A stretch of 64,000 bases of DNA from Escherichia coli. GTDB taxonomy: Bacteria; Pseudomonadota; Gammaproteobacteria; Enterobacterales; Enterobacteriaceae. The notes beneath the pieces were generated by a model. The model made no database searches, was not told the origin of the DNA, and was given only the letters and a program-made list of their open reading frames with translations. Within the stretch, counting starts at the first letter, position 1; every line of letters starts with the position of its first letter. Positions 1,747-49,286 of the stretch are shown piece by piece. A program made the position numbers and the translations under genes. Location of the stretch: assembly GCF_013315695.1 (NCBI RefSeq), contig NZ_CP054353.1, one strand, 5' to 3'.

Positions 1747-1836
1747 GGAGAGATGCCGGAGCGGCTGAACGGACCGGTCTCGAAAACCGGAGTGGGGGCA
1801 ACTCCACCGGGGGTTCAAATCCCCCTCTCTCCGCCA
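1747..1836 (+). tRNA. serU: tRNA-Ser (CGA), reconstituted at the prophage left junction
   Basis: 90-nt GGAGAGATGCCGGAGCGGCTGAACGGACCGGTCTCGAAAACCGG...TCTCTCCGCCA, long variable arm, anticodon CGA. Confidence 0.95.
1775..1836. other. attL core: 3' part of serU, direct repeat of 49225-49286
   Basis: 62-bp repeat identical to 49225-49286 except two positions in the variable arm (GTGGGGGCAACTCCAC here, GTAGGGGCAACTCTAC at attR). Confidence 0.85.
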
Positions 1837-1881
1837 AAATTCAATCACTTACACATCATTAAGTCAGTGACAAAAATCACA

Positions 1882-1914
1882 CTTGGAATTACTTGGAATA
1901 TTTTCTTGGAATAT
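1882..1914 (+). repeat. Three direct copies of CTTGGAAT(AT), putative integrase arm-type binding sites
   Basis: acttggaattacttggaatattttcttggaatatttt between the tRNA end and the int stop; the same motif recurs next to attR. Confidence 0.5.
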
Positions 1915-2914
1915 TTTCAGGTAACGGGACATCAAGTGTTGGTGAAACTTTAACCTTCCTGTCATAGATTAGCACTTGCCCTTCGGTTTTGTGACCAGAG
2001 AAAAGTTGCTTATCCCGGCTGCTTCCTTCATAGTCTGAAATTCCTTTCGCCTTCAGATCATGAAAGGTGAAGTCGGTTAAAATACCTGAAATTTTTCCAG
2101 CACGATTTCTTGCTTCTACCCACATTTCGTTAAAGCCTTTGTACATATATCGGTTGCCGTATTGATTGCTGATCACATAGGCAGATTTTGGTAACTGTTT
2201 TGCTTTTTCGATCGCTGCCTGTAATCGTGGACTCCATGCTTTTATCTGTTTTTTTCCGGTTTTCCCTTGCTGGATGAATATCCCGTCGTTTCCAATCTGT
2301 TCCCATTTCAGCGATAACACATCGGAAACCCTCGCTGCACACAGATAGGCAATTTCCATTGCGATAAAAACAGGAAGAGGTGCAACGCTTAATACTGCCT
2401 GGTATTCTTTGTCGGTTACATATCGTTCGCGGTTTTTGGCCTTGAATTTACTTACACCTGCACATGGGTTAGCCTTGACGTACCCTCGCTCATACCCCCA
2501 ACTGTAAACACGGGACATACTGCTTTTTTCATGGTTGGCTTGCGTTTTACTCTGCTCCCCTCTTTTGTCCATGTATCGACGGATGTGTTCTGGTTTTATG
2601 GAATCCGCTGGTACCTTACCGAATACGGCAAGCAACTTTTTTTGATGTTGCAGATAATCTTTTTGTGTTCTTGGACTAAGGTCACTGTAATAGGCGCTGG
2701 CGAGGAATTTTTCCCACAAGCGACCGAATGTCATTGCACGATCGCGATTATTTACAGTTTCCTCATACTTTTTCCATAAAGCAGCTAAACCATCCTTGAT
2801 GGCGGTTAGTGTGACAGATTCTCTGGATGTTGGTTTCCATACATAACTATATTTATTTGGGTATACATTTGGAGGTAATTTTTCGTGTTCAGGATTTTTC
2901 CTTCGTCTTCCCAT
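1889..2914 (-). CDS. int: Prophage tyrosine integrase, 341 aa
   Basis: Intact ORF ending 53 bp from the serU 3' end; tyrosine-recombinase-like C-terminal region. Confidence 0.9.
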   Translation of the reverse strand: MGRRRKNPEHEKLPPNVYPNKYSYVWKPTSRESVTLTAIKDGLAALWKKYEETVNNRDRAMTFGRLWEKFLASAYYSDLSPRTQKDYLQHQKKLLAVFGKVPADSIKPEHIRRYMDKRGEQSKTQANHEKSSMSRVYSWGYERGYVKANPCAGVSKFKAKNRERYVTDKEYQAVLSVAPLPVFIAMEIAYLCAARVSDVLSLKWEQIGNDGIFIQQGKTGKKQIKAWSPRLQAAIEKAKQLPKSAYVISNQYGNRYMYKGFNEMWVEARNRAGKISGILTDFTFHDLKAKGISDYEGSSRDKQLFSGHKTEGQVLIYDRKVKVSPTLDVPLPENIPRKYSK

Positions 2915-3117
2915 CAGATCGCACCAAAATTCGGCTCTACCTCGCGTGGTGGTAAAGTTTTATTGCAGGTAAATAGATCCCGGCTGACAATCGGTTTGCC
3001 ACTACGATTGGTATAGAACGGAAGCCCGTTTTCCATTAACCATTTTCGCTGGTGGCTTGCATATTTGCAGCCCGTTAATATTAGCAATTCATCTTCGGTT
3101 AAAAATAAGCTGCTCAT
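2914..3117 (-). CDS. xis: DUF4224-like small protein, putative excisionase
   Basis: 67 aa, MSSLFLTEDELLILTGCKYASHQRKWLMENG...; stop overlaps the int start; position typical of xis. Confidence 0.55.
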   Translation of the reverse strand: MSSLFLTEDELLILTGCKYASHQRKWLMENGLPFYTNRSGKPIVSRDLFTCNKTLPPREVEPNFGAI

Positions 3118-3175
3118 AGCTATATCTCATAACCGCCGCTAACTATATACGGTTAGCGGCAATTAGGGTTGAACA

Positions 3176-5617
3176 TTAAAAATCAGCCTGACTCGGGATC
3201 AGTTTTTGCCAGATAGCTGAAACGTATTTTGCCTGGTAACGAGCGTCATCAAGTGCATTATGTCGCTCACCTTCGAATGGAATAGCCGTTCTGGCATCGA
3301 AGTCTATGGCTTTCCCCAGCTCAACGATTGTGCGTACATCGCGATCGTTGTAGTAACGCCACGGGCAGGGGATCCCCTGCCGTTCGTATGAACGGCGCAA
3401 AATCGTGTTGTCGAAGTTGGCTCCATTTCCCCAAACCTGAACAAAAAATTCACCGGAGTTTTCGTCGATAAATTCCCGCAATTGTAACAGTGCATCATCT
3501 AACGGGATTTCATCGGTCATAATGGCAGATTGCGCTTCGCGTGATTGCTTAAGCCACCATTTAATGGTGTCCCGATCAATGACTCCGCCAGCAGTTTCCA
3601 GATCGATAGTCTTACTAAATTCCGGTCCCATATCTCCGGTTTGCGGATCGAAAAATATTGCACCTATTGAGATGATCGGGGCATCAGGATTTTTTCCCAT
3701 GGTTTCAAGGTCGATCATTAGATGGTCACACGTCCTGCTGGTGGATGTGATTTCGTGATGACCGTTCACCTTAATTGAGTGATCTGCCGTCTCGCCAGTT
3801 TTATTATCGCTGGCGTGATGCTGATTGCCGCCAGGGTTCTCCTTGTGTGGATGTTCAGCGCCTTCCATTTCCTCCGGATCATTTTCCTGAACTTCAACCT
3901 GATTCTCTTCATCGAATGTTTCCTGGTATGTTGCGTCGCCCATCACCGCGCCACAATCAGGGCAGTTGCCGCCACCGCTCTGACCGCAGGCGGTGCAGAC
4001 TTTTTCCGGTTCCTGTTGCGCTACTGGTTCGGATTGTTTCGTTTCTGGCTCGTTTTGTAACGCATTTGGGCTGTTTTGTTCCGCTTTTTGGTCGTTCCGT
4101 TCCGATTCATGCTGGTTCTGGTTCACAGAATCGCGAGTCTGGATCCCCTTGACCCATTTCGGATCATTAGGGTCGCTAATCCCCTCAACAAATTCACCAC
4201 GCGATACAGCAAGTAACTTATCGGCGTCAGGCTGGCTGATATTGGCTGCCTGCATAATTTTGTTTGCTTCGTCAGCGGTGACTTTTACTTGGTTAGCGGA
4301 ACTCACCTGCGACTGAGCATCCAGCGACTGCGCGTTCTGGCCATGTTCAGTTGTATCCGGTTCCATTGTTTCAGTTGTTGCCTGTTCACCTGCCATTGCG
4401 TCAGATGGTTGTGGTTTTTCTTCTTCTGTTTCACGCTCAGTAACCACCTCGCGGTTAATTTCTTCCAGGATATCTTTTTCCGGCGTATGCCGGGCAGCTG
4501 TGAGAGTTTCCTTGCTGGGGTTCTCGTGATCAGTTTCCGTCAAATAGGCGTTGATATACCCCTGAAGGCGTCCCGGGTAGTGATAAAATTCAGGGTGTGC
4601 GCTTCGGATAAGTGCAAAAATAGCGGCGCGGGAATAGTCCAGAATACCCGGGGTTGCACGAAGTGCTGCGGACCATTCTTTGAACGGACTTTCTTTGTTC
4701 AGGACTACTTCTTTTGCGCGACGATAAACGCTGCCCGGAATTTCATAAATATTAAAATCCATCGGAAGTGTGGCTGCTGCAATCTCCACATCCAGTGTGT
4801 CGAGGGTGTGTACTAAATTCGGATTGCGATCGGTTTTGTTCCCACCGCCAGCATTAGCACCGGAAGCCGTGCGGGTGATGCGTGAAACACGATTTCCTTT
4901 CATCCACTCTTTTGTCAGCAGACCCCGATCAGTGTAGTCAGCGTCCAGGTATGCTTCGAAAAAAGCAGTTATTAGTCCCAGGTCTGAATTACCAGGATTA
5001 GGGAAAACTTTGTCAGTGTCACGAACCAGTTTGTGGAGGTCGCGAATCTCCAGCGAGTCGAGCAGACTGGTTTTATGCGAAATAGCCAGGGCAGTAACAG
5101 CCGGTAGTTCTTCAGCCCGTGCAATGTGTAATGCCTGGAGTTCGTCGCGTGAAACGTGCGTTACTGGTTTTTCGCTGCCGTGTTGAGCAAGCCAACGAAT
5201 GGGCAGTTCCTGACCGGAGACAGGCAGAAGCATGCTCTCCTCAATCTCAGTCATGTCTTCGCCGTTGATGTTGGTATTGTCAGTGCTGGCTGGTTTGTCC
5301 TGAACAGAGGGGGAAGGGCCGATAAATGTCATTGTGATGCCATCTTTCCCGCCTTTTTCATAGCGGTTGCAGAATTCAGTATCAAACACGCCTTCTGGCG
5401 GAAGGTCGTCAACAACGGGCAAATTGACGCGGACGGGTTTTTTAAAGTCGTCTTCATCATAATCGTTGTCATCCATTGCGGTAATGCAGCGGGAGATTGC
5501 AACAGATAATTTTTTTGCTGTAGCCCAGTAAAAACCACCTTTAATTCCCAGGCGTTTTCTTACTTTGTCATTTTTTGCTTCGCAATATAGTGCAAATTCT
5601 TCTTTATCAGTGCTCAT
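3176..5617 (-). CDS. Large early protein with C-terminal DEDDh (DnaQ-like) 3'-5' exonuclease domain and central zinc ribbon; probable full-length YdfE-type protein
   Basis: 813 aa; C-terminus has MIDLETMG (Exo I), [11 protein letters not shown] (Exo II), HNALDDARY (Exo III); central [16 protein letters not shown]. Confidence 0.75.
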
Positions 5618-48578: not shown

Positions 48579-48587
48579 GGATAGCAG

Positions 48588-48875
48588 ATGGATATCACGT
48601 CGATACTTCATGCGCTTTGTGCCGTAGCGGTGCAGGTACTGGCTGGTCTTTTTACCGGAAACTGGGCTTACGGTGCGATAGCCGGTTGTACGTTCTTCAT
48701 TGCGCGTGAACACACCCAGGCAGAATATCGCTGGATTGAAATGTTTGGGCATGGCAAGAGGATTAACATGCCGTGGTGGGGCGGTTTTGATCCGCGCGTG
48801 TGGGATGTGGCAAGCCTGATGGATTTTGCTGTGCCGGTGGTGGCGTGTCTGCTGATCTGGATGTTGATCCGTTAA
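48588..48875 (+). CDS. Hypothetical membrane protein, 95 aa, last prophage gene before attR
   Basis: MDITSILHALCAVAVQVLAGLFTGNWAYGAIAGCTFFIAREH...; two or three hydrophobic segments. Confidence 0.5.
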   Translation: MDITSILHALCAVAVQVLAGLFTGNWAYGAIAGCTFFIAREHTQAEYRWIEMFGHGKRINMPWWGGFDPRVWDVASLMDFAVPVVACLLIWMLIR

Positions 48876-49112
48876 ATATAAAAAGTAAAAAGCCGCAGTA
48901 ACTTGTCATGACAGGATACTGCGGCTGGCTGGTTAACTTTCGATAGTGCGAGTATTGAATGATTTCCAGCTGTTACTGATTTTATATAACTGCAGTGGAA
49001 TTATTCAACACACAGGCAAAACGGAATAAGCTGAGAAAAAAAGCGTGCTTTCCCAATCTGGGGTAAATCACATCTGAATGACACCTGAAAACAGGTGGTG
49101 GCCTCAAGAAGG

Positions 49113-49185
49113 CTTGGAATATTCTTCTTTAATGTTATGTAATTTATTGATTTTTCGTGTACGATTTTAAGACATTTATTCCAAG
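49113..49185. repeat. CTTGGAATAT arm-type motif copies flanking attR (one direct, one inverted)
   Basis: cttggaatat at 49113-49122 and attccaag at 49178-49185; same motif as 1882-1914. Confidence 0.45.
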
Positions 49186-49224
49186 AAAAATTTTTAACTC
49201 TTTGATTTTTCGACTCTGTATCAT

Positions 49225-49286
49225 CGGTCTCGAAAACCGGAGTAGGGGCAACTCTACCGGGGGTTCAAATCCCCCTCTCTCCGCCA
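49225..49286. other. attR core: displaced original 3' part of serU
   Basis: CGGTCTCGAAAACCGGAGTAGGGGCAACTCTACCGGGGGTTCAAATCCCCCTCTCTCCGCCA, no 5' half of the tRNA upstream. Confidence 0.85.

Follow-up and report, generated by a model that had tools for sequence, protein, structure and literature searches.

A stretch of 64,000 nucleotides of Escherichia coli DNA (contig NZ_CP054353.1, in the following the window) contains a lambdoid prophage, which is bracketed by the tRNA gene serU at one end and by a displaced fragment of this gene at the other (Table 1). The prophage comprises 47,450 bp, if one copy of the core sequence is counted. According to the annotation of the prophage of strain MSB1_4I and to the open reading frames (ORFs) of the window, it shows the lambdoid gene order from int and xis through the early region and Q to the lysis, head, tail and tail fibre genes. 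The leftward early region comprises an exonuclease gene, dicB and ydfC, followed by immunity and replication genes and the gene for RusA, and in the late part lysis genes, lambda-like head and tail genes from Nu1 to J, lom and tail fibre genes were identified by means of the MSB1_4I annotation. Integrase and excisionase genes lie inside the left attachment site (attL) and tail fibre genes inside the right one (attR). The left outer flank contains the end of the integrase gene of the yersiniabactin island, asnT and mtfA, and the right outer flank contains zinT, msrQP, hiuH, hprRS and hchA. In K-12 and in thousands of other genomes, the mtfA and zinT flanks form one continuous region with an uninterrupted serU between them.

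Table 1. Features of the serU prophage in the window (positions refer to the 64,000-nt stretch)
Feature	Position	Strand	Basis or remark
serU, intact 90-nt tRNA-Ser(CGA), chimeric	1747..1836	+	ARAGORN; Rfam RF00005, 57 bits
Putative interval of strand exchange	1775..1793	.	spans anticodon stem 1774-1778/1786-1790 and 7-nt loop 1779-1785; deduced from the start of attP/attB identity (1775) and the marker 1794
attL core, left repeat copy, G-C allele	1775..1836	+	repeat comparison
Marker positions G1794/C1805 (tRNA 48:59), paired in the variable-arm stem; the bacterial allele has A:T	1794..1805	+	fold
P' arm with three direct CTTGGAAT(T/A) motifs, two of them within the 13-nt tandem unit CTTGGAATATTTT	1883..1918	+	overlaps the int 3' end
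int, lambda-type tyrosine integrase, 341 aa	1889..2914	-	Pfam PF00589, PF22022, PF14659
xis candidate, 67-aa DUF4224 protein	2914..3117	-	Pfam PF13986; PHROG 1266 'excisionase', E = 3e-21
Lambdoid prophage body	1837..49224	.	ORFs; annotation of the MSB1_4I prophage, 99.2-99.8% identical in aligned blocks
Q antiterminator gene	16403-17224		MSB1_4I annotation / ORFs
P arm with two TTGGAAT copies, 49114 (+) and 49178 (-)	49114..49184	.	motif search
attR core, displaced bacterial 3' serU fragment, A-T allele	49225..49286	+	followed by the native serU downstream flank, identical to K-12

The sole long direct repeat with two copies in the window comprises 62 nt, 60 of which are identical, and its copies are 47,450 bp apart. 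It corresponds to the 3' part (positions 29-90) of tRNA-Ser(CGA); the left copy belongs to the intact gene and the right copy is the displaced fragment. Identity ends on both sides of the repeat (1774 C vs. 49224 T; 1837 A vs. 49287 C), and within it the copies differ at two positions (1794 G vs. 49244 A; 1805 C vs. 49255 T). These are also the only positions at which serU of the window deviates from serU of K-12. In the minimum-free-energy fold they represent tRNA positions 48 and 59, which pair with each other as the third of six base pairs in the variable-arm stem, which is closed by a GCAA loop. The structure remains unchanged between the G-C form (-42.6 kcal/mol) and the A-U form (-40.6 kcal/mol). 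A G...U hybrid is predicted to keep this structure (-40.3 kcal/mol), whereas the variable stem is lost in the predicted fold of an A...C hybrid. Fifteen base pairs lie wholly within the 62-nt segment, and the chance that two random substitutions strike the same pair is 15/1891, or 0.8%; if Watson-Crick pairing has to be restored as well, it decreases to ~0.26%. A first-pass annotation, made from the letters of the window, had already reported this repeat, and the repeat comparison reproduced its coordinates and the quoted strings exactly. Its description of the two differences as complementary, a G-C versus an A-T pair, agrees with the fold, and its proposal that the repeats delimit a block of phage genes is borne out by int and xis inside attL, the tail fibre genes inside attR and the outer flanks that are contiguous at empty sites.

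Which of the two alleles was brought in by the phage can be read from the phage attachment site (attP). IMG/VR was searched with a pattern in which the P arm and the P' arm enclose the core, and both allelic forms of the core were allowed. Two independent contigs (L010 and L011) showed such a junction, in which the right end, the core and the left end are present on one molecule, and both read GGAGTGGGGGCAACTCCACC, i.e. the G-C allele. Contig L011 has a size of 43.7 kb with phage ORFs on both sides of the junction and a 341-aa int, the product of which is identical to Int of the window in 339 of 341 residues. If such contigs stemmed from the junction of tandem prophages, they would likewise carry the phage allele. 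In INPHARED, which was searched with the reconstructed attP, no record with a true attP was found. The best matches there, vB_EcoS-689R5 and vB_EcoM-606R7, were rejected as attP because they are prophage predictions with host flank (asnT, mtfA and intact serU), and ev099, PhiR70_1 and mEp332 were rejected because they hold a fossil attR instead. In mEp332 (L008) and ev099 (L009), this fossil (2600-3170 of each record) has tail fibre genes on one side and an AraC-type regulator on the other. Its components are the P arm of this type of phage, the serU fragment of 62 nt with A-T and ~280 bp of the E. coli chromosome from the right side of serU; the own int of these phages is located further on. 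This arrangement resembles a remnant from an ancestor that was excised imprecisely from serU.

The population figures given here were obtained from identity classes in BLAST and from 60 rows sampled at even spacing among the 5,427 matching records, and a few dozen sequences were read directly. About 41 of the 60 sampled steps (~3,700 of 5,427 records) represented empty sites, with an uninterrupted serU, the native flank and the two mismatches expected for A-T. The empty site of K-12 MG1655 is also A-T. The same allele is present in CFT073, a strain with B2-type flanks, though its serU is occupied by the tcpC island, which recombines only in the last 14 nt; since the repeat of this island covers these 14 nt only, the variable arm of CFT073 is bacterial. 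Among the intact tRNA-Ser(CGA) copies of Enterobacterales species representatives other than E. coli, 77 of 80 are A-T and three are G-C.

attL and int of the type described here were found in 1,132 to 1,154 of 5,426 complete E. coli genomes (~21%). Direct reading showed the G-C pair at attL of the window and of A36, MSB1_4I, EC958 (sequence type 131, ST131), 689R5, 606R7 and O157:H7 TW14359. A perfect match to a G-C attR was obtained for none of the 837 genomes with this attR, the main class of which has the two mismatches expected for A-T, and in the spread sample all attR places (11/11) fitted A-T. The combination of G-C at attL and A-T at attR is nearly universal among the lysogens and recurs in about 1,000 of them from unrelated lineages; G-C at attL is common to O157:H7, O111, ST131 and others.

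These observations make it about 90% probable that a lambda-like phage integrated in serU, and that attL consists of the bacterial 5' part and the phage 3' part with the G-C pair, with the bacterial A-T fragment at attR. In the proposed mechanism, Int would catalyse site-specific recombination of attP, in which the last 62 nt of the tRNA gene are present as a copy, with the anticodon stem-loop of serU. As a result, the gene beside int would be composed of the bacterial 5' part joined to the phage 3' part, and the original bacterial 3' part would have been moved 47 kb away to attR. From 1775 onwards, which is base two of the anticodon stem, attP and the bacterial attachment site (attB) are identical, and the first phage marker, at 1794, ends up in attL; therefore, strand exchange should have taken place within 1775-1793, where the exact cleavage positions of Int presumably lie. 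The two strands of the anticodon stem (CCGGT and ACCGG) would form inverted-repeat core sites around a 7-bp overlap. This interval matches the anticodon-centred class of tRNA attachment sites, and the splitting of a tRNA gene by islands or phages that restore it with their own sequence has been described (PMC4383910; bioRxiv 10.1101/2020.11.02.365908). The rebuilt tRNA is modelled as fully paired, with a slightly more stable variable-arm stem due to G-C instead of A-U in the third pair, and it presumably works normally.

Several points weigh against this assignment, among them the basis of the population figures in identity classes and a spread sample. Empty sites with the G-C pair exist: at least 40 genomes matched the G-C tRNA with the native flank at 100% over 193 nt, and the next sampled rank, about 93, was already A-T, which places this class at 40 to ~92 genomes, near 1%. 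One of them, O99:H6 CU42ET-1, has flanks with 5 and 1 mismatches to those of the window. The pattern in lysogens is also not absolute. Two lysogens, GDSC2239PM and MS20654, which were the only ones matching an A-T attL query at ≤1 mismatch, were read and confirmed, and SCU-115, one genome among the 837, has a G-C attR with a single-nucleotide polymorphism in the flank. Furthermore, Int of the window has a lysine (K288, window 2051-2053) at the position of the catalytic R311 of lambda Int (FHDLK vs. FHELR). This lysine is also present in int of O157:H7 TW14359 and, since the integrase family clearly integrates (>1,100 lysogens), it may represent a replacement of the second arginine of the RHR triad that is either tolerated or functional. 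Finally, terL (about 26479-28412) has an 11-bp deletion (ATCGATGGCGA) at 27899 in comparison to MSB1_4I, which splits it into the ORFs 26438-28096 and 27876-28412 and truncates the frame of the large terminase near codon 538 of 642. This copy of the prophage may be defective and incapable of DNA packaging, but a sequencing error could also account for the deletion.

The first-pass annotation had concluded that the functional serU is partly phage-derived and carries a phage allele that keeps the stem paired, and the G-C pair in both attP contigs, the native A-T allele and the recurrent pattern in lysogens support this view. It had also regarded an empty G-C site in non-lysogenic relatives as irreconcilable with a phage origin of the allele. 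Such sites do occur in the 40 to ~92 genomes mentioned, yet the assignment for this lysogen is not overturned, because attP is G-C and the displaced fragment of this very strain is A-T; the expectation was too strict.

The five empty G-C sites that were read belong to at least four flank haplotypes; that of ET350, for example, has a K-12-like flank with yodB. The class as a whole is polyphyletic. It is not credible that mutation produced the same double change repeatedly at these sites. The likeliest source is a phage allele that was left behind when the two 62-bp copies occasionally underwent homologous exchange or conversion 3' of the markers, where an identical stretch of 31 bp (1806-1836) is available, and the prophage was then lost. 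This route is favoured because the allele is abundant on prophages and because excision by Int at the mapped site would restore A-T. The products expected of such an exchange are all present at frequencies of about one per thousand, namely attL with A-T (n=2), attR with G-C (n=1) and an empty site with G...T (n=1). The latter was found in one complete genome, Z1322HEC0009 (L111, 2501-2590), and gives the variable stem a G.U wobble. It arose either by recombination between the phage and host alleles or by a single mutation, as the one-step intermediate of the compensatory change.

Alternatively, G-C might be an old standing polymorphism of serU that was spread by ordinary recombination and copied by the phage from such a host. 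The empty G-C sites would then be native, and the allele of the intact tRNA of this lysogen would still be phage-derived. The presence of the pair in at least four flank haplotypes and in three other Enterobacterales species representatives fits this explanation, as does the fact that no phage-specific sequence is left at the empty G-C sites. However, the allele is found at empty sites in ~1% of genomes versus ~21% on the prophage, its occurrence is polyphyletic and defines no clade, two of the three G-C cases of other genera adjoin remnants of this integrase family, and the rare classes predicted by repeat exchange (attR G-C, attL A-T and the G...T hybrid) all exist. A standing polymorphism is therefore rather unlikely as the origin of the empty G-C sites.

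Hardly any credence is given to the reversed assignment, in which the host would be natively G-C and the phage A-T, and the exchange would have occurred 3' of the variable arm, in the T-loop or at the 3' end, leaving the tRNA bacterial through 1805. Crossover classes of both kinds are known for other integrases (PMC4383910), and the empty G-C sites, including the one with flanks nearly identical to those of the window strain, would be explained. Nevertheless, both attP junction contigs are G-C, ~1,150 lysogens of unrelated lineages are G-C at attL versus ~3,700 A-T non-lysogens, CFT073 with its B2-type flanks is natively A-T, and the identity of attP and attB starts exactly at the anticodon stem, as predicted by the anticodon-centred class. 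That the repeats were identical at integration and diverged later in this strain through one point mutation and another that compensated for it can practically be dismissed: the G...T state of Z1322HEC0009 indicates that a single-step intermediate can persist, but both differences are shared by lysogens of many unrelated lineages and by attP itself, and their independent repetition is not credible.

The phage itself may have captured its piece of the tRNA gene from a host other than E. coli, as the following sequence comparisons suggest. Over its first ~19 nt (AAATTCAATCACTTACACA), the P' arm agrees at 16 of 19 positions with the region downstream of serU in Yokenella and Salmonella arizonae, versus 4 of 19 in an ungapped comparison with the E. 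coli flank. The conserved ATTCAAnCACTTA motif downstream of serU in other genera was considered as a sign of related phages at most of these sites, which was ruled out by tblastn with Int. An int homologue or remnant was detected near 12 of 53 motif-bearing intact copies, and six displaced fragments were followed by the motif without int. Because most motif-bearing copies have no int nearby and displaced fragments carry the motif without int, the motif also represents native flank.

The int gene lies 53 nt from the end of the tRNA gene, immediately inside attL. Its product matched lambda Int structures over the full length (E = 8e-13), including the N-terminal arm-binding motif (MGRRRKNPEHEKLPPNVY vs. 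MGRRRSHERRDLPPNLY in lambda), and is identical to Int of O157:H7 TW14359 in 332 of 341 residues. Aligned to lambda Int, R212, K235, H308 and H333 of the catalytic set R-K-H-R-H-Y are conserved, and a tyrosine follows nine residues after the GHK motif (LIYDRK). TTGGAAT or its complement ATTCCAA occurs five times in the window, exclusively in the two att arms (1883, 1893, 1906, 49114 and, on the minus strand, 49178). Because the repeats are confined to the arms and Int has a lambda-like N-terminal domain, they are good candidates for arm-type Int sites. The unit CTTGGAATATTTT is present in two copies in the window and in three copies in O157:H7 TW14359. Two copies lead to the 341-aa Int ending with ...ENIPRKYSK, and three copies lead to a 359-aa Int with another tail, as in TW14359. 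In A36, MSB1_4I, EC958, GDSC2239PM and MS20654, the NCBI Prokaryotic Genome Annotation Pipeline (PGAP) marks the 341-aa int as 'frameshifted'. The suspicion of a dead integrase that arose from this label was rejected; the label reflects the copy number of the 13-nt repeat after the catalytic tyrosine. It is probably not a sign of int inactivation, because the attP contigs hold the 341-aa form and the catalytic tyrosine is encoded upstream of the repeat.

Integration into a tRNA gene that is restored by attP was reportedly described by Reiter in 1989, and the class of sublocations at the anticodon loop is said to have been defined by Williams in 2002. The mechanism of integration is textbook and the site is known; new are the natural marker and the population numbers. 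As in the class of tRNA-gene integrations compiled with Islander (PMC4383910), an intact gene and its displaced fragment bracket the element, int is located beside the former, identity extends from the anticodon stem to the CCA end, and the regenerated gene belongs in part to the element and in part to the host. There is no difference in principle; here, the copy of the element carries a compensated base-pair difference, which is a natural marker of the side of the crossover. The system resembles Int, Xis and attP of lambda in having a heterobivalent tyrosine integrase that can be aligned over the full length, with an arm-binding N-terminus of the form MGRRR...LPPN.Y, a small excisionase gene upstream of int, repeated motifs in both att arms and the order of head and tail genes. 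It differs from lambda in its target, a tRNA gene instead of the intergenic gal-bio attB, in the identity block of 62 bp versus 15 bp, in the lysine for R311 and in the arm motif CTTGGAAT, which overlaps the 3' end of int.

Further close counterparts are the lambdoid serU prophages of Shiga toxin-producing (STEC) and extraintestinal pathogenic E. coli (ExPEC), such as those of O157:H7 TW14359 (ECSP_RS13720) and of the ST131 strains EC958 and JJ1886, which have the same attL with G-C and the same neighbours, a DUF4224 xis and an exonuclease gene. In contrast, the interiors are mosaic; A36, for instance, shares 100% of attL and has a different morphogenesis module. The copy in the window also deviates in terL, by the 11-bp deletion, and at the 3' end of int, where it has two 13-nt repeats instead of three. 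serU is a recognised hot spot for prophages and islands (PMC8767318, PMC7545054) and is listed as a prophage site in O121:H19 (PMC8767318). It is also the attachment site of the pathogenicity island PAI-serU (tcpC island) in CFT073, 536 and Nissle 1917 (PMC7545054). Unlike the prophage described here, this island is not a phage; its repeat consists of the last 14 nt only (CCCTCTCTCCGCCA), the integrase is located at the far end, and the variable arm is the bacterial A-T form. In the CFT073 record (L110), the positions concerned are 830-850 and 23342-23431. According to the spread sample, ~370 records belong to this class, and there are rarer attR-like classes with a start at position 20 or 25 of the tRNA; serU is thus used at more than one sublocation.

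The compensated difference in the variable arm is a detail inside a known system and not a new kind of system; in a limited literature search, no paper describing it for serU was found. Our understanding of integration is unchanged, and the value of the locus is that of a clean worked example. The two-base natural marker shows without an experiment which half of the rebuilt tRNA gene is phage-derived, and it narrows the crossover down to the anticodon stem-loop. About 21% of the complete E. coli genomes would express a serU tRNA with a 3' part, variable arm included, that is phage DNA, and ~1% of the genomes appear to keep the G-C allele without a prophage. This calls for caution in tRNA allele typing and when the sequence of an 'empty site' is taken as the ancestral state. 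The long variable arm is the main element for the recognition of tRNA-Ser by seryl-tRNA synthetase. There was no evidence that the G-C pair changes the function of the tRNA. It is very unlikely that the allele is non-neutral in the sense that the phage profits from adjusting how tRNA-Ser(CGA) is charged, how stable it is or how sensitive it is to nucleases, with the allele outliving the prophage as a heritable host change at the ~1% of empty G-C sites. If this were true, it would represent a phage-driven allelic replacement of a host tRNA.

Beside the attachment sites, further features were observed in the prophage and its surroundings. Just downstream of the Q gene, two tRNA genes were detected. 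The first (17368-17443) was identified as tRNA-Met(CAT) by ARAGORN and its homologue is annotated as tRNA-Ile by NCBI, which is presumably lysidine-modified; the second (17544-17618) encodes a tRNA-Arg(TCT). An ORF at 19113-21089 encodes a SASA-family (NanS-p-like) esterase. We take this layout of Q, two tRNA genes and an esterase gene to resemble the late region of Shiga toxin (Stx) phages; no stx gene is listed in the late region of the prophage in the annotation of the near-identical MSB1_4I region. The tail fibre gene at 46231-48303 has degenerate periodic repeats of 21/42 nt (46774-46961, 63-76% identity), which presumably encode a repetitive segment of the fibre shaft.

At the left edge of the window (1-755), the 3' part of another tyrosine integrase gene adjoins a tRNA-Asn gene (asnT, 680-755, minus strand), and in the near-identical MSB1_4I the same integrase is that of the yersiniabactin High Pathogenicity Island. 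Mobile elements are present at both asnT and serU, and therefore two neighbouring tRNA genes ~1 kb apart are both occupied. The right flank of the window (49287-49956) lacks yodB, the gene of a cytochrome b561, which is located between serU and zinT in K-12 and ET350, and the distance between serU and zinT is ~670 bp in the window in comparison to 1,443 bp in K-12. This short flank without yodB is common to A36, KBN10P04869, CU42ET-1 and strain 1105.

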